64,000 bases of DNA from an uncultured Chloroflexia bacterium (GTDB lineage: Bacteria; Chloroflexota; Limnocylindria; Limnocylindrales; CSP1-4). Under the pieces are notes generated by a model, which worked only from the letters and a program-made list of their open reading frames with translations, was not told where the DNA came from and did not search any database. The translations under genes were made by a program, and so were the position numbers. Of the stretch, positions 36,301 to 44,858 are shown one piece after another (positions within the stretch are counted from its first letter, which is position 1; each line of letters starts with the position of its first letter). The stretch is from assembly GCA_963746845.1 (NCBI GenBank), contig CAVVCZ010000004.1, positions 480,001 through 544,000 on the forward strand, written 5' to 3'.

Positions 36301-36889
36301 CGATCGGGCCGCTGAACATGCGGCTCGAGTGTCCGATCCGCTGGCCGTCTCGTGCCTGCAGATCCTCCGGTCCGAGCGGTTCCTGTTCGCGGGCGAGTTC
36401 CGTGCCGCGTTCGACGGGGCCATCTGGGAGAGCGGATACGCGGACTCGATCCCATTGCACGTGCTGCTCACCGCACGCGCGGCTCTGTGGGCCGGCGACC
36501 TCGACCGCGCGCACGACGTCGTTCGGCTCGCGACGGGCGTCGCCATGTCGGACTCGTTCCTCCTGGCCTGCCGAGGCGTCGCCGACGCCGCAGTTGCGGC
36601 GCTCGAGGGCCGACCGGATGAGGCGCTCACCGAATACCGATCCGCGATCGCCGCGATGTTCCGGATCCACGCGGACTTCACGGCCGCCTGTGTGTGCCTG
36701 GACCTGGTCGTCGCCCTCGGCCCGGCGCATCCCGCCGCCGGCGACGCCGCCGCGAACGCCCGTCGGATCTTCGAGCGTTGTGGGGCCCGGGCCTATCTCG
36801 AGCGCCTGGACACCGCGCTCGCCGGCGACGGGGTCGTGGTGGCGCGACCGACCGGGACGGCGATACAATCGGGCGCCTTGGCGGAGTAG
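33365..36889 (+). CDS. Double zinc ribbon - class III adenylate/guanylate cyclase - STAND (AAA) ATPase - TPR-like protein
   Basis: Four CxxC pairs, VLFADLVGFT, EKFIGDAVM, GDLVNTAAR, GPGGIGKS and LFEDLQWAD motifs; helical repeat C-terminus. Confidence 0.92.
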   Translation: MICSSCGSENLPGQRFCGSCGTPQAVACTVCGSANPAGQRFCGSCGTELAGSAGETRPAAAAGAAATPGAERRLVSVLFADLVGFTPFAEEQDAEDVRETLTRYFAIATRIVERYGGTIEKFIGDAVMAVWGAPTAREDDAERAVRAGLDLVDAVQELGPGIAARAGVMTGEAAVTIGQVNQGMVAGDLVNTAARVQSVAPPGGVLVGEATMRAAGAAITFEAAGDQTLKGKSSPVATWRAVRVVAQRGGHGRSDLPEPPFVGREDELRLLKDLVGSGDRRTQLVSITGPGGIGKSRLAWELEKYIDGIAGDVYWHRGRSPSFGDGITFWALGEMVRRRAGLAEDDDADTSRARIHATVAEYVTEDDDRRWVEPALLTLLGVEPSPAGGRDVLFAAWRIFFERIAERGPTILLFEDLQWADSGLLDFIEHLLEWSRGVPLLVVTLARPELFDRRPDWGAATRQLTRLDLEPLGDDAMRRLLAGFVPGLPDAAADAIIGRADGVPLYAVEIVRSLVADGRIELVDGVYRPVGELGLLSVPDTLRSLIASRLDTLDPADRSLVADASVLGQVFTTSGLAAMSGVAPETLAIRLRFLVRRQLFDIEVDPASPERGQYRFVQSLIREVAYATLARRERRDRHLTAARFYESLGDEELAGALANHYVSAHAASEPGPEANAVAVQARLALGAAADRAVDLGAHDQAISYLRAAIAITTDPRDRGHLLLRAAESARPAADMPAAEAFAEEARAIAAASDDPEAAALATALLGEILIDNGRVDRAVVLLEETIAGLPATISDVTRAGLYTTLSHALMRTGASDVCIEAADKALAIAEHLDLELIVSEALNNKGSALGYLGRRREALALLRAAVDIARANGYVASEIRALMNVSASEEDVLVAHDVCVEAFELAIRVGNRSLACWTLESRRFNAYWRGDNWDDALAHDVFTELDLGGGSLADLDAIRSLWFTGLLAGARGVATDDLIDRAAEHAARVSDPLAVSCLQILRSERFLFAGEFRAAFDGAIWESGYADSIPLHVLLTARAALWAGDLDRAHDVVRLATGVAMSDSFLLACRGVADAAVAALEGRPDEALTEYRSAIAAMFRIHADFTAACVCLDLVVALGPAHPAAGDAAANARRIFERCGARAYLERLDTALAGDGVVVARPTGTAIQSGALAE

Positions 36890-36954
36890 CTCAGTGGTAG
36901 AGCAGGGGACTCATAAGCCCTTGGTCGGTGGTTCAAATCCGCCCTCCGCTACCA
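36880..36954 (+). tRNA. tRNA-Met (CAT), probably elongator
   Basis: GGCGGAG/CTCCGCT acceptor stem, D-arm, CTCATAA loop, GGTTCAAATCC T-arm, encoded CCA; -10 TACAAT at 36864-36869. Confidence 0.95.
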
Positions 36955-37001: not shown

Positions 37002-37165
37002 GTGCCGTCGATGGACGGCCCGTGCATCCGTGACGGCGATCCGGGCGAATCCACGAGTGAGCGCCTGACGACCCGGACCTTGGTCTCATGGGACCGTCAC
37101 GATGCGGCGCTATACTCGATCGGCTGGCTGCCGCGCGGCGGCGCCACTCATTCCCGGAGGCTCCG

Positions 37166-39079
37166 TTGAATTCCAGGTTCTTCCGCAACGGCGTGGTGAT
37201 GCTGGCCCTGGTGGTCGTCGCCCTCGCCGTTGTCTTCACGGTGGTCAACCAGACCTCGCCGAGCAACGACATCCCCTACTCGAAGTTCCTCGACAACGTC
37301 GCGGCGGGCAAGGTGACGACAGTCGAGCAGGAAGCCTCGACGCTGACCGTCACCCCGAGCGACGGCTCCGCGAAGTACACCGTCGTCGTCCCCGGCCTGC
37401 TGGCTGATCAGGTCCTCAATGACATGCGGACCGCGGCCGCGGGCAAGGTGCCGGTCCCCACGTTCGGGGCGAAACCCGCGCCGGACAACGGCTGGATCAG
37501 CATCCTGATCACGGGTCTCCTGCCGATCCTGATCATCGGCGGGTTCATCTTCTTCATGATGAGACAGGCCCAGGGCACCAACAACCAGGCGCTGTCCTTC
37601 GGGAAGTCGCGGGCCCGGATGTTCCTCGGCAACAAGACCGTCGTCACCTTCGCCGATGTGGCGGGCGTGGACGAGGCGAAGACCGAGCTCCAGGAGGTCG
37701 TCGAGTTCCTGAAGTACCCCGAGAAGTTCAACTCGCTCGGGGCGCGGATCCCGCGCGGCGTGCTCCTCGTCGGACCTCCGGGAACGGGCAAGACGCTGAT
37801 GGCGCGCGCCGTCGCCGGTGAGGCCGGGGTGCCGTTCTTCAGCATCTCCGGCTCGGAGTTCGTCGAGATGTTCGTCGGCGTCGGCGCGAGCCGCGTCCGC
37901 GACCTGTTCGACCAGGCCAAGCGCAACTCGCCGTGCATCGTCTTCGTCGACGAGATCGACGCGGTCGGTCGCCAGCGTGGCGCCGGCCTCGGTGGCTCCC
38001 ATGACGAGCGCGAGCAGACCCTGAACCAGATCCTCGTCGAGATGGACGGCTTCGACACGAACACGAACGTGATCGTCGTCGCCGCCACGAACCGGCCGGA
38101 CGTCCTCGACCCGGCGCTCCTGCGCCCCGGTCGGTTCGACCGTCAGGTCATCCTCGACCGGCCGGACATGAAGGGTCGCGTCGCGATCCTCAAGGTCCAC
38201 ACGAAGGGCAAGCCACTCGACAAGGCCGTCGACGTCGAGGGCGTCGCGCGCCTCTCGCCGGGCTTCTCCGGCGCGGACCTTGCGAACCTCGTCAACGAGG
38301 CGGCGATCCTGTCGGCGCGCCGCAACAAGAAGGTCATCGGGATGACGGAGTTCACCGAGGCCCTCGAGCGGATCGTCGCGGGGCCAGAGCGGAAGTCGCG
38401 GATCATCTCGGACGCCGAGAAGGCGATCATCGCCTACCACGAGGGCGGCCACGCGGTCGTCCAGCGGATCCTCCCGAAGTGCGATCCGGTGGCCAAGGTC
38501 ACGATCATCAGCCGCGGCATGGCCCTCGGGTACACGATGGCCCTGCCGACCGAGGACCGCTATCTCCAGTCCAAGACCGAGTTCGAGGACAAGATCGCGG
38601 GGCTCCTCGGCGGGAACGCCTCGGAGCGGCTCGTCTTCGGGGACACGACGACGGGCGCCAGCAACGACATCGAGAAGGCGACCGACCTGGCCCGCCGGAT
38701 GGTCACCGAGTTCGGGATGAGCGATCGTCTCGGCCCGTTGTCCTTCGGCAAGCGCGACGAGCTCGTGTTCCTCGGACGCGAGATCGGCGAGCAGCGGAAC
38801 TACTCCGACGAGGTCGCCAAGCAGATCGACGAGGAGGTCCGGGCGATCATCGATCACGCCTACGAGCGGGCGATGGACGTCCTGGTCACCCACCGCGACA
38901 AGCTGAACGCGCTGGCGGAGAAGCTCGTCGCGGAGGAGACGGTCGATGCCGAGGGCTTCGAGGCCCTCTTCACGGATATCCCGCCGAAGTCGGGGCTCCG
39001 GGACGCACCCCCGCTCATCGTGGGCCCGAACCAACCGACCCCGGGCGCCCAACCCGCCCCGAGCCCGTCGCCGGCCTGA
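37166..39079 (+). CDS. ftsH: ATP-dependent zinc metalloprotease FtsH
   Basis: Two TMs, [25 protein letters not shown] and HEGGH motifs; GGAGG RBS; -10 TATACT at 37111. Confidence 0.98.
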
Positions 39080-39112
39080 CCGCCGGGCGACTCGCCCCAC
39101 CAGCGTCACCTT

Positions 39113-39139
39113 CGATCCCGGGCCGATGGCCCGGGATCG
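39113..39139 (+). terminator. Hairpin after ftsH
   Basis: CGATCCCGGGCC-GAT-GGCCCGGGATCG perfect 12-bp stem. Confidence 0.65.
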
Positions 39140-39190
39140 TTGCATCCGTCGTCCGGCGGCCATGGGCCCGGCCCACGTACCATCGCGCGC

Positions 39191-40600
39191 ATGACCACCA
39201 CCAACCCCGCCACCATCGACCCCGTCGTCGACGCCTGGCTCGACGGCCACGCCGGGGAGCGCCTGGAGTCGTACAAGGCCTTCCTGCGCATCCCGAGCAT
39301 CTCGGCGCTCCCCGAGCACGCCGACGACTGCCGGCACGCCGCCGAGTGGATCGCCGACGACCTGCGCCGGATCGGCGTCGAGCACGTCGAGGTCGCCACG
39401 ACCGAGGGTCACCCGATCGTCTACGGCGACTGGCTCCACGCTCCGGGCGCCCCGACCGCCCTCGTCTACTGCCACTACGACGTCCAGCCGGTCGACCCGG
39501 TCGAACTGTGGGACTCGCCGCCGTTCGAGCCGGCTGTCGTGGACGGCCGGATGCTCGCCCGCGGTGCGTCGGACGACAAGGGCCAGATCCACATGCATCT
39601 CCGCGCCGCGGAGGCACTCCTGGCGACCCACGGGGCAATCCCGATCAACCTGAAGTTCGTCTTCGAGGGCGAGGAGGAATCGAGCAGCGCCCATCTCGAT
39701 GCCTGGCTCGAGACGAACCGCGAGCGCGTGGCCGCGGACGTCGCGATCATCAGCGACACGGGCTTCTTCGAGGGCAACGTCCCGGCGATCACCGTCGGCC
39801 TGCGGGGCCTGATGTACGCCCAGATCGACGTCGTCGGCACGGCCGTCGACCTCCACTCCGGCGGTTTCGGCGGGGCCGTCCAGAACCCGGCCAACGCCCT
39901 CGCGACGATCATCGCCGCGCTGAAGGGTCCGGACGGCCGGATCCTCGTCCCGGGCTTCTACGACGACGTCCTGCCGCTGTCCGCCGACGACCGGGCCCAC
40001 TTCGCGGCCCTGCCGTTCGACGAGGCCGTCTACCTCGATCACCTCGGCCTGCCCGAGCTGTTCGGCGAGGTGGGCTACACGACACTCGAGCGACGCGGCG
40101 GCCGACCGAGCCTCGACGTGAACGGGTTGTGGGGCGGGTTCCAGGGCGAGGGGTCGAAGACGATCATCCCCGCCCACGCGCACGCGAAGGTCAGCTGCCG
40201 GCTCGTCGCCGACCAGGACCCGACGCGGATCTTCGAGGCCCTCCGGGCCTACGTGGCGCAGATCGCCCCGCCGGGGGTGACGACGACCGTGCGCTCGCTG
40301 GGCGGCGGCCGGCCGAGCCTGACCCCGGTCGACCATCCGGTGACGCAGGCGGCGGCCCGTGCCCTCGAGGCGACGTTCGGGCAGCCGCCGGTCTTCGTCC
40401 GTGAGGGCGGCTCGATCCCGGTCTGCGCGTCGTTCGAGTCGATCCTCGACGAGCCGGTCGTGCTCATCGGGTTCGCGCCTGCCGACGGCCATGCCCACGC
40501 CCCGAACGAGTGGATGGACCTCGGCAACTACGAGACCGGGATCCGCACGATCGTCCGTCTCTGGGACGAGATCGCCGCCCTCCCGACGCTCGAGACGTAG
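39191..40600 (+). CDS. M20-family dipeptidase
   Basis: HYDVQP, ARGASDDKG, EGEEE, DLHSG, GGSIP and HAPNE motifs. Confidence 0.93.
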   Translation: MTTTNPATIDPVVDAWLDGHAGERLESYKAFLRIPSISALPEHADDCRHAAEWIADDLRRIGVEHVEVATTEGHPIVYGDWLHAPGAPTALVYCHYDVQPVDPVELWDSPPFEPAVVDGRMLARGASDDKGQIHMHLRAAEALLATHGAIPINLKFVFEGEEESSSAHLDAWLETNRERVAADVAIISDTGFFEGNVPAITVGLRGLMYAQIDVVGTAVDLHSGGFGGAVQNPANALATIIAALKGPDGRILVPGFYDDVLPLSADDRAHFAALPFDEAVYLDHLGLPELFGEVGYTTLERRGGRPSLDVNGLWGGFQGEGSKTIIPAHAHAKVSCRLVADQDPTRIFEALRAYVAQIAPPGVTTTVRSLGGGRPSLTPVDHPVTQAAARALEATFGQPPVFVREGGSIPVCASFESILDEPVVLIGFAPADGHAHAPNEWMDLGNYETGIRTIVRLWDEIAALPTLET

Positions 40601-40698
40601 GACTTTCGGCCCTCCATCCCGTCCGCTTTCGGGCGGCTGCGCGGAAAAACCCCGGTGCTACGATGCAACCCGATGTCGTACCGGGAGGACGAGCGAGC

Positions 40699-41772
40699 GT
40701 GACCGAAACCGTCGATTCCACCGCCGCAGGACAGAGCTGGCGGCTGGACGCCGACACGGGCAGCATGGCGCCTCGATCGGCGCTGGACGTCCTCGTCGAC
40801 CTCAATGACAAGGTCGTGTCCGGCAAGGTCAGTGAATACCAGCCCGTCCCGCTCGGTTTCACGCCCCTCGACAAGACGATCGGCGCCGGCCTCCGGGCCG
40901 GTGAGCTGCTCCTCATCGGTGGTGCCCAGGGCACCGGCAAGACGACGATGGCCCTCCAGATGGCGCGCAACGTCGCCTCCGGTGGGCAGGCGAACGTCCT
41001 CTACATCTGCTTCGAGCACGACGAGCAGTACCTGCTCAACCGCCTGATCGCGATGGAGTCGGCGCTCGCCCACCTCCCGCACAAGACCGGCGCGATCAAG
41101 ATCCAGGACGTCCGCAAGGAGATCCTGGGCACATGGATGGCCGAGGGCGGCGGGGTCGCCCAGCTCGCGAGCAATCCGCGCCTCCGCCCGTCGCTTGACC
41201 GGATCGCCCGCTACGGCCAGAACCTGTTCCTGCTCCGTGGGTCGCAGACCGCGTCGACGGTCGAGAATATCCGCAAGCTCGTCCAGCAGCATCGGGAGCT
41301 GAGCGGCGACCGTCGGCTCGTCGTCTTCGTGGACTATCTCCAGAAGGTCCCCCAGATCCCGGAGCCGAACAGCGAGGTCGAGAAGGTCACGTACGTCGTG
41401 AACGGCCTCAAGGACGTCGCGCTGTCCGAGGACGTCCCGATGATCAGCATCGTGGCCGCCGACAAGGAGGGCCTGAAGGCGTCGCGCCTCCGGAACTTCC
41501 ACCTGCGCGGCTCGTCGGCGATCAACTACGAGGCCGACATCATCCTGATCCTCAACGAGAAGTACCACATCGTCGCCAAGGTCAACATCGAGTTCAACCC
41601 GTACCAGGCGCAGCGCTTCCGCGACTGGGTGGTGATCTCGGTCGAGAAGAACCGCGGCGGCCAGGACAACGTCGACCTCGAGTTCGAGAAGCACTTCGAG
41701 TTCTCCTGCTTCGACCCGAACGGTCGAACCGTCCAGGAGAAGCTGATCGAGGAGCGTCTCTACAACGACTGA
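40699..41772 (+). CDS. Stand-alone DnaB-like (SF4/RecA-fold) ATPase lacking the DnaB N-terminal domain
   Basis: LLIGGAQGTGKT, VFVDYLQ, LRGSSAINYEADIILIL and VEKNRGG motifs; GGGAGG RBS. Confidence 0.85.
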   Translation: MTETVDSTAAGQSWRLDADTGSMAPRSALDVLVDLNDKVVSGKVSEYQPVPLGFTPLDKTIGAGLRAGELLLIGGAQGTGKTTMALQMARNVASGGQANVLYICFEHDEQYLLNRLIAMESALAHLPHKTGAIKIQDVRKEILGTWMAEGGGVAQLASNPRLRPSLDRIARYGQNLFLLRGSQTASTVENIRKLVQQHRELSGDRRLVVFVDYLQKVPQIPEPNSEVEKVTYVVNGLKDVALSEDVPMISIVAADKEGLKASRLRNFHLRGSSAINYEADIILILNEKYHIVAKVNIEFNPYQAQRFRDWVVISVEKNRGGQDNVDLEFEKHFEFSCFDPNGRTVQEKLIEERLYND

Positions 41773-41794
41773 CGCTCCGCCGCGGCGTCACCCT

Positions 41795-41819
41795 CGACCC
41801 GGCCGACGCGGCCGGGTCG
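41795..41819 (+). terminator. Hairpin after the DnaB-like gene
   Basis: CGACCCGGCCG-ACG-CGGCCGGGTCG perfect 11-bp stem. Confidence 0.6.
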
Positions 41820-41857
41820 CTGGATTCCCGGGCCCGTATCACAACCGGCGACCCACG

Positions 41858-41932
41858 TCTTCCACATTTCGTCCACACTCGGTTGCGTTTCGTGGACGAT
41901 TGCGGGGCACGACCTCGCAAACTCGTGGATAA
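41858..41932. promoter_or_regulatory. Cluster of four DnaA-box-like 9-mers
   Basis: TCTTCCACA (41858, +), TCGTCCACA (41869, +), TCGTCCACG (41891-41899, -) and TTATCCACG (41924-41932, -). Confidence 0.55.
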
Positions 41933-41937
41933 GGCCG

Positions 41938-41966
41938 TTGCCTCGGCACACCCCGCCGCCTATGGT
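41938..41966 (+). promoter_or_regulatory. Sigma70-type promoter of the ncRNA
   Basis: TTGCCT-N17-TATGGT ending 7 nt before the first base of the terminal helix. Confidence 0.75.
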
Positions 41967-41973
41967 TCGTCTT

Positions 41974-42159
41974 GCCCGAAGGGGCCATCGCAAACGGACA
42001 GGCGAGGCGAGGGGTGACCCGCGCAGCGCCGCCGGTCCGGTCGGACGAGTCGCAAGGCGCGTCCCGGTCGTGACCGCCGATCCAGAAGCCGACCGGCCGA
42101 GATCACATCAAGGTTCGTCGCTTCCAGGGTCGCCACCGGGCGGGCTGGTTCCTTCGGGC
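41974..42159 (+). ncRNA. ~186-nt structured ncRNA, 6S RNA-like candidate
   Basis: 14-bp closing helix GCCCGAAGGGGCCA/TGGTTCCTTCGGGC; inner helices GGTGACCC/GGGTCGCC and GCCGGTC/GACCGGC; unpaired bubbles; own promoter and trailing TTTT. Confidence 0.7.
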
Positions 42160-42252
42160 GTTTTCGTGTGTCGGTCGGGGCGCGTTCGGGACCCGCGGGA
42201 TACACTCGGCCGACTGACACGCCCCGCTGAACGCAGGCCGTTGGAGTGCTCG

Positions 42253-42798
42253 ATGAGCCCATCCCCGACAGACTTTCCCGCGGTCGTCGAGGTCGTCGTG
42301 GAGATCCCCCGCGGCAGCCGGAACAAGTACGAGTGGGACGAGACGGCCGGCGTCTTCCGGCTCGATCGCGTGCTCGCGTCGGCGGTCCATTACAACTTCG
42401 ACTACGGGTTCATCAGCGACACCCGCGCGGGTGACGGCGACCACACCGACGCCCTCCTCCTGATCGACGAGCCGACGTTCCCCGGCTGCCGGGTGTGGGC
42501 CCGCCCGATCGGTGGCCTGGAGATGCGCGACGACAAGGGCCCGGACTTCAAGGTCCTGTGCGTCGCCGTCGCGGACCCGCACCAGGCCCACGTCAAGCGG
42601 CTCGACCAGGTCCGGCCCCATCGGCTGGTCGAGATCGAGCACTTCTTCAACACCTACAAGCTGCTCGAAGCGAAGGAGACCGACGTCCTTGGCTGGCGCG
42701 ACGCCGCACGGGCGCGGGAGGTGCTCATCGCCGATCGCGCGATCTGGCGCACGGAGCACGCCGCCGAGCCCGGCGCCGCCGCGGTCCGGCCCGGTTGA
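42253..42798 (+). CDS. ppa: Inorganic pyrophosphatase (family I)
   Basis: VEIPRGSRNKYE, LDRVL, DYGFI, DGDHTD and HFFNTYK motifs. Confidence 0.93.
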   Translation: MSPSPTDFPAVVEVVVEIPRGSRNKYEWDETAGVFRLDRVLASAVHYNFDYGFISDTRAGDGDHTDALLLIDEPTFPGCRVWARPIGGLEMRDDKGPDFKVLCVAVADPHQAHVKRLDQVRPHRLVEIEHFFNTYKLLEAKETDVLGWRDAARAREVLIADRAIWRTEHAAEPGAAAVRPG

Positions 42799-43373
42799 TC
42801 GAGGAGCCGCGCCTCTTCATCGCGGCCCCGCTGGACGATGCCGCCCGGGATGCGGTCGAGGCCGTCGTCGCGCCCGTCCGGGCGGGCGAGCCGGAAGGTC
42901 GCGGCGTCCGCTGGGTCCGCTTCGAGGGCCTGCACGTGACGCTCCGGTTCCTCGGCCCGACGCCCGAGTCGCGGGTGGCCGGCCTCGCCGACGCCATCCG
43001 CACGACCGCGACCGGCGAGACCCCCATGACGATCCGGATCTCCGGCGCCGGGGCCTTCCCGCCGCACGGTCGGCCGCGGACGCTGTGGCTCGCGATGACC
43101 GACGGCGTCGACCGCCTGACGGGCGTCGCATCCCGGCTCGATGACGCGCTGGCGGAGGTCGGGTGGGCGCGCGAAACCCGGCCGTTCCGGGCACACCTGA
43201 CGCTCGCACGGGCCGATGGCGTCCGGGCCGGGCCGGCGACCGCGGCGGCCCTGCGCCAGGCCGCGGCCGACATCGCGATCGATGCCGTCCTGGATCGGAT
43301 CGTCCTGTTCGAGAGCATCACCGGATCCGGCCGGGCCCGGTATCTCCCCCGTGCCGAGGCGCCTTTCGGGTGA
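42795..43373 (+). CDS. thpR: RNA 2',3'-cyclic phosphodiesterase (2H family)
   Basis: RLFIA, LHVTLRFLG and FRAHLTLAR (two HxT motifs); TTGA overlap with ppa. Confidence 0.9.
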   Translation: MIEEPRLFIAAPLDDAARDAVEAVVAPVRAGEPEGRGVRWVRFEGLHVTLRFLGPTPESRVAGLADAIRTTATGETPMTIRISGAGAFPPHGRPRTLWLAMTDGVDRLTGVASRLDDALAEVGWARETRPFRAHLTLARADGVRAGPATAAALRQAAADIAIDAVLDRIVLFESITGSGRARYLPRAEAPFG

Positions 43374-43477
43374 CCCGGCGGCCAGTCCGGCGAGACGGCT
43401 CGGACAGGTCCCGGTGCTACCATCGACAGTCCGCGGAGCGGATTCCCTGATCCCCCGGAAGGAGCCCTCGTCGCACC

Positions 43478-44617
43478 GTGACCCAGACGCAGCGTGGCCG
43501 CCTGGTCGTCGCGTTTGGGATCCTGAATCTCGTCCTGGCAACGGTGGCGCTGACCGCCGGGATCTTCGCGCCGGTGCGGCCGTCGGAGGTCGCCACGGCC
43601 AGCGGGAGCCCGACGTCGACGGCCTCCGACATCGCCGCGAGCATCGCTCCGAGCACCTCCCCGAGCGGTTCGTCGGCCTCATCGAGCCCGGCATCGTCTC
43701 CCTCGTCGGCGACCTCCCCGTCCTCGTCGGCCTCCGGGTCGTTCGCACCGGGTGCGTCCTCGTCGAGCGTCCCGGGTGGCTCGCCCGCGGGATCGCCGAC
43801 GTCGAGACCGGGCGGCCCGACGTCGACACCGGGCGGCCCGACCACGACCCCTCCGTCCGGCCCGACGACCGGCCCGACTGCGACGCCTGGGCCGACGGCG
43901 ACACCTCGCCCGACCGCCACGCCGCGTCCGACGCCGCGTCCGACACCGAGACCCACGCCGCGCCCGATACCGACGCCCAGACCGACCCCGATCCCGACCC
44001 GGACCCCGACGCCGCCGCGCCCGACCCCGACGCCCACCCCACCGCCGAGTGGCGAGCCCAGCGCGCCGCCGAGCGGCCAGCCGACGCCCGTCCCGACCCC
44101 GACGCCCACCCCACCGCCGAGTGGCGAGCCCAGCGCGCCGCCGTCCGGCCAGCCGACCCCGACGCCGACGAACGTCCCGTCGACCGAGCCCTCGAAGGAG
44201 CCGAGCGAGCCGCCGTCGACGGAGCCGTCGAAGGAGCCCACGTCGACGCCGTCGGACGAGCCGACGAGCACGCCGTCGAAGGAGCCCACGTCGACGCCGT
44301 CGGACGAGCCGACGAGCACGCCGTCGGACGAGCCGACGAGCACGCCGAGCGAGCCAGAGGACTCCGCAACGCCGTCCCGACGCCCGCCACACTCGCACCC
44401 GCCGTGCGAGGGGACGGCTCAGGGAGGATCCGGCTACCGCGACACCGCCGACCCATCGTCGGGCTCGTGCGCGCCCGGCGGGCATGACGACGAGTCATCC
44501 CACGGGATCGTGCTGGTGCCGTTCCTGCTGGGGAGCGGGTTGCTGACGCTGACGACCCGGATCCGGCGGCGGGGTCGCCAGGTGGGGCGGCGTCGGCGCG
44601 CGCGGTCCCGCGCCTGA
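43478..44617 (+). CDS. Pro/Thr/Ser-rich low-complexity membrane/surface protein
   Basis: N-terminal hydrophobic helix, repeat-rich body, C-terminal hydrophobic segment and Arg-rich tail; AAGGAG RBS. Confidence 0.75.
   Translation: MTQTQRGRLVVAFGILNLVLATVALTAGIFAPVRPSEVATASGSPTSTASDIAASIAPSTSPSGSSASSSPASSPSSATSPSSSASGSFAPGASSSSVPGGSPAGSPTSRPGGPTSTPGGPTTTPPSGPTTGPTATPGPTATPRPTATPRPTPRPTPRPTPRPIPTPRPTPIPTRTPTPPRPTPTPTPPPSGEPSAPPSGQPTPVPTPTPTPPPSGEPSAPPSGQPTPTPTNVPSTEPSKEPSEPPSTEPSKEPTSTPSDEPTSTPSKEPTSTPSDEPTSTPSDEPTSTPSEPEDSATPSRRPPHSHPPCEGTAQGGSGYRDTADPSSGSCAPGGHDDESSHGIVLVPFLLGSGLLTLTTRIRRRGRQVGRRRRARSRA
44021..44350 (+). repeat. Intragenic tandem repeats (72-nt duplication; 24-nt EPTSTPS[D/K] units)
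   Basis: Identical 51-nt block at 44021 and 44093; five EPTSTPS units. Confidence 0.85.
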
Positions 44618-44858
44618 CGCGGTCGGGCAACGGGCCGTTGTCCCGAGAAACAATGGAGCGGGTCGCTCCGGGGGGAGCGGAGCGACCCGCTGGGCGGTCA
44701 CCTGCCCGAGTGACCGGCCGGTCGCCCGAAGGCGAACCCGGGTCGATTGTTCCCGCTGGCCCCCATGCGCGGCATCACGCAAGCGACGTAAAGATCATTC
44801 AGGCCGTCAGTCGGATCGGTGGAGATTCCTGAACGTTCGCCTCGATTACGATGCGTGA

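Follow-up and report, generated by a model that had tools for sequence, protein, structure and literature searches.

What kind of RNA arises from the intergenic region in front of the inorganic pyrophosphatase gene ppa in an uncultured bacterium of the Limnocylindria (Chloroflexota)? The question was raised by a sequence-only reading of a 64-kb stretch of this genome (hereafter the window, to which all plain positions refer; the source genome as a whole is G000), which had proposed an unannotated structured RNA with its own promoter and had likened it to the RNA polymerase-binding 6S and Ms1 RNAs. Here we report that the RNA gene at this locus, 41974..42164 on the plus strand and called copy A below, is the long (A-type, ~185 to 190 nucleotides [nt]) member of a multi-copy small RNA (sRNA) family in one taxonomic family of the Limnocylindria. 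The larger finding is this family itself, with its invariant closing helix, swappable modules, and DnaA-box-like promoters in an uncultured soil lineage. That it is a real sRNA family we consider very probable; what controls it and how it acts are questions that we answer with graded confidence.

A conserved and abundant RNA upstream of ppa

The elements that the sequence-only reading had described at the ends of the RNA can be read in the sequence: a TTGCCT-N17-TATGGT promoter, 7 nt to G41974, a helix that closes the RNA, and GTTTT behind it, with 41974-41987 facing 42146-42159 in 13 standard pairs plus an A-U pair. Strict scans for sigma-70 promoters and terminators returned nothing at this locus and are uninformative here, and their empty result fits a weak -35 element and a terminator stem that is a long-range closing helix.

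A blastn search with 41930-42170 in G000 and 60 related genomes (61 in total) gave long matches of 74% to 94% identity in 32 of 36 genomes of the same genus and short end matches only in the other four, and no match in the 24 genomes (~1 Mb each) of a sister family. In an alignment of 30 loci, conservation starts at the first of three DnaA-box-like motifs upstream of the promoter and collapses directly after the T-run. The orthologous RNAs are 187 to 195 nt long and differ in length by indels of 1 to 2 nt, which are not multiples of three, and copy A is therefore not coding. One row of this alignment (L008, from G010) belongs to a genome flagged as unpublished, and no statement made here rests on it. 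Both flanking genes were seen at 21 of 28 genus loci examined, and the remainder show one of them only, perhaps due to short contigs.

Expression of this RNA can be followed in public data: 16 studies of soil, rhizosphere, or freshwater metatranscriptomes contributed 19 RNA runs that contain part of our 411-nt query, none of them with more than 0.36 of the sampled query words. Contigs of four runs from four studies were placed on 41700-42400 at 90% likeness or more. Within the intergenic span, they cover just 41982-42159, with zero depth at 41796-41963 and 42180-42275, and library adapter letters adjoin their 5' side at 41982-41993 and their 3' side at 42159. The summed word depth within 41982-42159 is about 10^2 to 5x10^3, compared to 6 to 14 at the end of the upstream gene and 0 to 38 in ppa, figures that come from assembled contigs with a single depth each and cannot rank genes. 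The runs were chosen for containing this stretch, and many pieces are 90% to 99% alike, so that transcripts of relatives are included. Within these limits, the contigs agree with an RNA that is short, discrete, and very abundant, and they fit neither DNA carry-over nor a ppa leader. Their confinement to 41982-42159 is consistent with the discrete transcript of ~185 nt that had been anticipated at this place, rather than proof of its exact ends.

Three arms on an invariant closing helix

On the plus strand, copy A folds at -105.2 kcal/mol (z = -3.63), which none of 200 shuffles equaled, compared to z = -1.0 and 29 of 200 shuffles as good for the minus strand, i.e., the fold is strand-specific. 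The consensus fold that RNAalifold predicts for the 29 full-length orthologs (excluding the contig-truncated L021) is a closing stem, P1 and P2, with three arms (Table 1). On this predicted fold, 98.5% of the cells are paired, and compensatory changes on both sides are found in 12 of 55 pairs, compared to 4.9±1.3 in shuffles, none of which reached 12 in 500. Slid controls gave 1 to 5 compensatory pairs, a comparison generous to the fold as the latter was predicted from the same alignment in which the pairs were counted. The 12 pairs are spread over arm 1 (one), the arm 2 hairpin (four), and arm 3 (seven, of which one basal and six in the main helix), and of the 29 orthologs, 15 close the loop of arm 1 with a G-C pair and 14 with an A-U pair. 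P1 is silent on covariation, since 12 of its 13 pairs are identical across all 29 sequences, and this constancy of sequence is a finding in itself. Equally constant is the core of the loop presented by arm 3 (type-1 loop), GAUCACAUCAA, which is invariant in 29 of 29 orthologs.

The original proposal is upheld in part: copy A is an unannotated, independently transcribed structured RNA with its own promoter and terminator, conserved among relatives and with compensatory changes in its arms. The unpaired A-rich segment that had been noticed at 42098-42115 is real as well and corresponds to the invariant hairpin loop GAGAUCACAUCAA at 42099-42111. The internal helices drawn at the outset fared worse: pairing of 42013-20 with 42127-34 conflicts with the local hairpin 42001-42030, which all 29 orthologs keep, and pairing of 42031-37 with 42091-97 can be drawn but competes with the consensus helices 42033-37/42072-76 and 42094-97/42112-15.

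A multi-copy family with exchangeable interiors

Beyond the orthologs, blastn also matched the first ~35 and the last ~23 nt of the query elsewhere in the genomes. G000 was found to contain five paralogs of 78 to 190 nt (copies A to E; Table 1) that have the closing helix and the promoter spacing in common. A TAnnnT box precedes GCCCGRAGGGGYC by 7 nt in every copy except D, where the distance is 8 nt, and all five copies end with GGTYSCTTCGGGC followed by a T-rich tail. The 5' arm of P1 is common to all of them, with R or Y at two positions, and the type-1 loop recurs in copy E and, as GAUCGCAUCAA, in copy D. The genes next to the other copies (a GTPase, an MBL-fold hydrolase, a PNP/UDP phosphorylase, and MoaA) are unrelated. 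Copies B and C form a tandem on the same strand, ~830 nt apart (L031:1482-1569 and L031:2309-2395, i.e., G000:C4:715981-716894), and a minus-strand open reading frame (ORF) of 229 amino acids without Pfam match lies between them. Such tandem pairs, 0.3 to 1.4 kb apart (one or two at ~3 kb), recur across many genomes of the taxonomic family.

The 5' module pattern, TANNNTNNNNNNNGCCCGRAGGGG, occurs in 1 to 4 copies in 43 of 43 genomes of the genus, compared to no match for a reversed control pattern. In a class-wide sample of 401 genomes (G000 and 400 others), 122 of the 137 genomes that belong to the taxonomic family of G000 (f1) have the module, across ~30 genera, compared to 4 of 263 genomes of the four other families (0/16, 2/92, 2/153, and 0/2). 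A scan of species-representative genomes with a stricter pattern gave at least 122 stretches, and among the matches listed, nearly all are Candidatus Limnocylindrales, Limnocylindria, Chloroflexota, or uncultured Chloroflexia metagenome-assembled genomes (MAGs). The idea that this could be a lineage-specific RNA has thus gained support, and the alternative of a new sRNA class, also voiced at the outset, fits the family evidence. Two genera of f1, g4 and g24, mostly lack the 5' module (present in 1/11 and 3/7 genomes); their genomes are mostly ~90% complete or better, and loss or divergence of the module could explain this.

Across genomes, 174 5' modules were collected, of which 161 have a 3' arm within 300 nt, giving 151 unique RNAs. 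These loci were selected by the 5' pattern and their 3' arms were found by regular expression, so that the counts are silent on diverged members, and the finding that P1 pairs at 12 or more of 13 positions in all 151 unique RNAs is partly owed to the construction of the search. The unique RNAs fall into length clusters of 60 to 99 nt (61), 100 to 159 nt (24), and 160 to 199 nt (65). Their interiors are built from hairpin modules of two types. In type 1, a stem presents GAUC(A/G)C(A/C)UCAA; this module is found in 1 to 3 copies in 73 RNAs. Type 2, a closed hairpin that reads GGUG-CUUG-CAUC or a covarying version of it (e.g., GGUA-CUUG-UAUU), is found in 1 to 3 copies in 32. Not one of the 151 RNAs has both, and 46 matched neither expression. 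This exclusivity suggests two functional subclasses on one chassis. One further type-1-like hairpin, on contig C9, was set aside as it is located at the end of a coding gene.

The ~180-nt class extends to other genera in two further variants (22 and 8 unique sequences) in which P1 and two arms, capped by GUGA and GCAA, are retained and a CUUG-capped third arm takes the place of the type-1 loop. A covariance model of copy A matches them over their full length at 30 to 58 bits; their alignment to this model is rich in inserts, and they were excluded from the pair counts given above.

DnaA-box-like motifs at fixed promoter positions

Upstream of copy A, the 30-locus alignment consists of three short conserved boxes with unconserved spacers between them, followed by TTG and then the -10 box. 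The upstream boxes of the family read (T/C)(C/T)(G/A)TCCACA or, in the opposite orientation, CGTGGA(C/T)AA and match at 8 of 9 positions what we take to be the DnaA-box consensus, TTATCCACA, or TTGTCCACA in high-GC bacteria. Among 159 unique upstream regions of 130 nt, taken from loci selected by the 5' pattern, 157 contain at least two RTCCAC cores, with a mean of ~3.2 compared to 0.16 predicted from the genome-wide rate (1, 2, 3, 4, 5, and 6 cores in 2, 26, 84, 37, 9, and 1 regions, respectively). These cores occupy fixed places that correspond to the three motifs of copy A: a forward core at -120 to -105 in most regions, reverse cores starting at -95 to -85 (136 in the 159 regions), and reverse cores starting at -55 to -50 (144 in the 159 regions). 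The five paralogs of G000 each have 2 to 4 such motifs at about -110, -90, and -50. Of the -35 hexamer, only the first three positions are conserved across the family (T in 100/160, T in 143/160, and G in 95/160). With only TTG of the -35 element kept and the third box ending 5 base pairs (bp) upstream of it, the promoter appears to have the layout that would be expected of activator-dependent transcription.

The same motif marks the presumed replication origin. The densest core cluster of G000 has nine cores within 246 bp (C1:208468-208713; four reverse, then five forward, then an AT-rich stretch). It is flanked by dnaA (C1:206693-208397) on one side and on the other by an ORF that starts at 208755 and that we take to be dnaN by its position, and with this location and the adjoining AT-rich stretch, we regard the cluster as oriC. 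The 2 kb upstream of dnaA showed no box cores. If boxes are defined more strictly, clusters of three or more are found genome-wide only at oriC and at the promoters of copies A and B. A cluster of six cores on contig C6 lies inside an SbcD-like gene and was rejected as a codon artifact. G000 encodes one protein with the DNA-binding domain of DnaA (domain IV). The boxes are conserved and their spacers are not, the family promoters have clustered oriC-type boxes at fixed positions, and we consider it probable that DnaA controls them.

Features and genes around copy A

Table 1. Coordinates of copy A, its promoter, its neighbors, and its paralogs in G000 (positions with a contig prefix refer to G000; all others to the window).
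Feature	Position	Strand	Remarks
DnaA-box-like motif 1, TCGTCCACA	41869..41877	+ (forward), about -105	conserved as CGTCCACA in genus alignment
DnaA-box-like motif 2, CGTGGACGA on + (TCGTCCACG on -)	41891..41899	-, about -83	genus alignment
DnaA-box-like motif 3, CGTGGATAA on + (TTATCCACG on -)	41924..41932	-, -50 to -42	5 bp upstream of -35
Weak -35, TTGCCT	41938..41943	+	family-wide only TTG kept
-10 box, TATGGT (TAnnnT)	41961..41966	+	17-nt spacer from -35; followed by conserved discriminator TCGTCTT (7 nt)
RNA body, copy A, about 186-191 nt	41974..42164	+	predicted +1 G to end of T-run
P1 5' arm, GCCCGAAGGGGCC	41974..41986	+	invariant in 29/29 orthologs
P1, 13 bp	41974-86 x 42147-59	+	predicted by RNAalifold
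P2 5' side, CGG	41995..41997, pairs with 42136-42138	+	up to 7 bp (CAAACGG/CCGUUUG) in some orthologs
Arm 1, hairpin with GYGA (GNRA-type) tetraloop and two AG/AG internal loops	42001..42030	+	consensus fold
Arm 2, outer helix CGGUC/GACCG, inner hairpin with GCAA cap	42033..42076	+	4/5 inner pairs compensatory
Arm 3, long hairpin presenting type-1 loop	42078..42132	+	6/15 main-helix pairs compensatory
Type-1 loop, GAGAUCACAUCAA, candidate effector module	42099..42111	+	11-13 nt, unpaired in consensus fold
P1 3' arm, GGUUCCUUCGGGC	42147..42159	+	with U-run, predicted terminator
GUUUU tail	42160..42164	+	sequence conservation stops here
Upstream gene, distant DnaB_C-type/KaiC-like ATPase	40510-41772	+	79 bits vs 385-bit DnaB cut-off
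Downstream gene, ppa (inorganic pyrophosphatase)	42253-42798	+	about 90 nt past RNA, same strand
Copy A	this locus	+	190 nt
Copy B	C4:715981-716068	same strand as C	88 nt
Copy C	C4:716808-716894		87 nt
Copy D	C5:350490-350413	-	78 nt
Copy E	C6:166183-166104	-	80 nt

The canonical DnaB of this genome is encoded elsewhere (G000:C1:60387-61694). The C-terminal 32 to 70 residues of the upstream DnaB_C/KaiC-like ATPase are 98% to 100% identical in seven loci of other MAGs, compared to just 78% to 88% identity for the ppa N-terminus in five of those seven, which points to unusual constraint on the ATPase. It is this unusually constrained gene that directly precedes the DnaA-box-like motifs of copy A. 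Three ORFs of 1116, 658, and 423 amino acids (37148-40498 on the minus strand, 42654-44630 on the minus strand, and 43216-44487 on the plus strand) have no Pfam match, and some of them may be spurious frames opposite real genes in this DNA of 71% G+C.

Searches against known RNA families

At the gathering score, the only Rfam match in the 64-kb window is a tRNA gene (36880-36951, plus strand). Even at E<=10, the check that had been proposed for copy A gave nothing for 41700-42350, and the loci of copies B and C also had no match; the single exception, a 19-bit malK-III match, is on the wrong strand, within a promoter, and was put down to chance. A covariance search for 6S RNA across the whole genome had no match at copy A, and its best match (C4:156392, 18.9 bits compared to a cut-off of 46.4) folds worse than shuffles (z = +1.61), resembles coding sequence, and was discarded. 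A CAGG...GNRA...GCAGC pattern in arm 1 had suggested signal recognition particle (SRP) RNA, an idea that was dropped because the SRP RNA of this genome, of the large type, is located elsewhere (C4:1259871-1260135, 167.8 bits).

Proposed mechanism and alternative explanations

We see roughly an even chance that these RNAs are a DnaA-controlled, trans-acting sRNA family of which copy A is the long member. DnaA would bind the three boxes at about -105, -83, and -46 and control, most likely activate, the weak promoter TTGnnn/TAnnnT. Judging from the spacing and the RNA contigs, transcription would start at G41974, and the initial 13 nt would pair with the finished 3' arm as the invariant P1, which together with the U-run may terminate transcription and bury both RNA ends so that the RNA accumulates. 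P1 would carry a variable cargo of hairpin modules, which in copy A are a GYGA-capped arm, a GCAA-capped arm, and a long arm with the type-1 loop. These modules may act in trans, somewhat more likely by binding or titrating a protein than by antisense pairing, and their output could couple DnaA status (that is, the potential to initiate replication) to another cellular process.

Taken singly, protein binding is a plausible mode that we hold to be short of an even chance, and antisense pairing is possible with still less confidence. We lean toward protein binding because the number of modules varies between RNAs, because the stem of type 2, a closed tetraloop hairpin, is conserved, because types 1 and 2 never mix, because the sequence of P1 is kept though any complementary arms would fold equally, and because complementary target sites were not found. 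In its most ambitious form, which we put forward as a rather unlikely conjecture, the proposal would be that DnaA directly drives a regulon of abundant structured RNAs that have P1 as an invariant, protein-recognized handle and interchangeable hairpin modules, and that titrate or scaffold a factor and possibly feed back on DnaA or initiation.

Several points weigh against a DnaA-controlled, trans-acting family. The identity of the boxes rests on their likeness to the oriC motif and to the DnaA-box consensus, and control by DnaA could be repression, although activation is most likely. No contig start was observed at 41974, the contigs do not fix the exact RNA ends, and the RNA evidence consists of assembled contigs from runs selected by this very stretch. 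Hfq (PF17209), CsrA (PF02599), and Ro/TROVE (PF05731) were not detected in G000, which is 92% complete, and the genes flanking the five copies are unrelated, so that the neighborhood names no partner. Finally, an invariant, single-stranded loop of 11 to 13 nt also resembles an antisense seed.

This last point is the core of an alternative in which the family is DnaA-box-driven but classically antisense, with GAUCACAUCAA as an mRNA-pairing seed and two to three copies of the loop as several seeds. The loop is unpaired in the consensus fold, invariant among all orthologs, and reused in paralogs, and other sRNAs are known to repeat their seeds, e.g., RsaE/RoxS and 6C RNA with their C-rich loops. 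However, an exact and one-mismatch 11-mer search of G000 for the complement of the loop gave nothing convincing: the three exact 11-mer matches outside two sRNA genes are coding and read in the sense of the loop (D-H-I-N codons), so that no perfect antisense site was found, and wobble-tolerant 9-mer scans gave 236 scattered matches with no evident pattern at gene starts. The type-2 module, a closed CUUG hairpin with conserved stem, would offer no seed at all, and the invariance of the P1 sequence would go unexplained, so that we regard a purely antisense family as doubtful, yet as a strong rival to protein binding. Another possibility is that the loci act primarily as DNA, i.e., as DnaA-titrating or -reactivating sites similar to datA or DARS, with a secondary transcript that might, e.g., modulate DnaA occupancy. 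Three boxes in forward, reverse, and reverse orientation do recur at 2 to 5 loci per genome and are of the same type as those of oriC, but conservation of the transcribed part is no lower than that of the boxes, compensatory pair changes are found in it, the RNA reaches high levels, and the conserved hairpin modules would have no role. We thus consider such DNA sites improbable.

No better placed, and in our estimate even slightly less probable, is the original suggestion of a 6S/Ms1-like RNA that would mimic open promoter DNA and bind RNA polymerase. A length of ~186 to 191 nt, a long closing stem, and great abundance in metatranscriptomes would suit it, as would the lack of a canonical 6S RNA in G000 at 92% completeness, and the sensitivity of the 6S model is limited, with matches in only 5 of 14 control genomes. 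Yet copy A is without any Rfam match even at the permissive threshold, and what covariation supports is a set of three arms, fully paired and lacking any large two-sided bubble; the ~180-nt variants of other genera fold alike. The paralogs of 78 to 90 nt with the same promoter, P1, and loop are too short for promoter mimicry, and the most conserved element is a hairpin loop instead of a bubble. The comparison with Ms1 has no basis either, since Ms1 is an actinobacterial RNA of about 300 nt, compared to ~190 nt for copy A, and the host lineage is Chloroflexota (Limnocylindria). The absence of Rfam matches, the three-arm fold, and the multi-copy family with its short members thus all count against the 6S/Ms1-like reading. 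A cis-acting leader or attenuator of ppa could seem attractive from the location of the RNA ~90 nt upstream of this gene on the same strand and from the synteny kept within the genus. We judge it very improbable, as the RNA has its own terminator, no contig lies over 42180-42275, paralogs adjoin or face unrelated genes, and among the 44 relatives of ~180 nt that lie outside the genus loci, 34 were seen with neither of the flanking genes (most of these flanks being short). Least credible of all is a mobile or repeated DNA element similar to a miniature inverted-repeat transposable element, whose ends would be the 13-bp terminal inverted repeat. Several copies per genome with identical inverted termini and variable interiors are reminiscent of such elements, but the copy number is low (1 to 5 per genome), the position is syntenic across the genus, conservation reaches ~105 nt upstream of the repeat into the promoter, and the interior covaries, folds in a strand-specific manner, and is highly expressed.

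Significance

In the literature that we searched, which excluded subscription journals, there was no DnaA-box-driven sRNA or structured RNA family and no work on noncoding RNA of the Limnocylindria. If our proposal of a DnaA-controlled family is true, this would be the first sRNA family, within that literature, found with promoters built on DnaA boxes, and it would connect the initiator protein with regulation at the RNA level in a direct way that can be tested. In the more ambitious form outlined above, replication status would be broadcast post-transcriptionally by an RNA family without counterpart in model bacteria. The design of these RNAs is unusual in that one invariant closing helix, which doubles as predicted terminator, carries swappable hairpin modules. 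Limnocylindria, or Chloroflexota of the Ellin6529 type, are common in soil and uncultured, and no regulatory RNA is described for them in the literature searched. As the RNA of copy A is prominent in soil metatranscriptomes of many studies, it could serve as a practical activity marker for this lineage.

Comparison with known systems

Similar to 6S RNA (RF00013), copy A is ~185 to 190 nt long, abundant, apparently stable, and independently transcribed, and its ends are paired in a closing stem. Unlike 6S RNA, it does not match the model, is predicted to have three arms instead of a rod with a central bubble, belongs to a multi-copy family with members of 78 to 90 nt, and has a promoter with DnaA-box-like motifs. 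Another parallel is found in CsrB/CsrC and RsmX/Y/Z, several paralogous protein-titrating sRNAs per genome with one transcription-factor site upstream. Paralogy, a single type of upstream site, variably repeated hairpins with a conserved loop, and high abundance are all shared with our family. However, its loops are GAUCACAUCAA or the CUUG hairpin and not GGA, a gene for CsrA was not found in the 92%-complete G000, the 5' and 3' ends form an invariant closing helix, and the upstream sites are DnaA-box-like and not those of GacA/UvrY.

Paralogs with a common promoter architecture and common sequence blocks, scattered or in tandem, are also known from Qrr1-5 of Vibrio and from the streptococcal csRNAs under CiaR, which act with Hfq or by antisense pairing through a shared linear seed. 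In our family, the shared block is instead the terminal helix, the two interior classes do not occur together, and no Hfq was detected in G000. Bacterial Y RNAs similar to YrlA are bound at their 5'/3' stem by a Ro/Rsr (TROVE) protein that is usually encoded nearby; no PF05731 protein was found in the 92%-complete G000, and the neighbors of the copies are unrelated.

Among candidate sRNAs of the Chloroflexota found by comparative genomics, as copy A was, the Chloroflexi-1 RNA motif (RF01698) is listed for Chloroflexus aggregans only (PMC2864571). This family is in Rfam, yet it does not match copy A or the loci of copies B and C. Links between sRNAs and replication or cell cycle control have precedents in EcpR1 of Sinorhizobium (PMC4414408) and CcnA of Caulobacter (PMC8959179). 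By their abstracts, EcpR1 and CcnA act on cell cycle regulators or have other drivers, unlike the RNAs described here, where the link lies upstream in apparent DnaA sites. Neither of the two has any sequence relation to the family of copy A.

As a transcription factor, DnaA is known from sda of Bacillus subtilis and from autoregulation of dnaA, and its known targets are protein-coding. Clusters of DnaA boxes just upstream of the promoter of a small regulator are thus a feature that these systems have in common with our family, the difference being that the putative targets here are structured RNAs.

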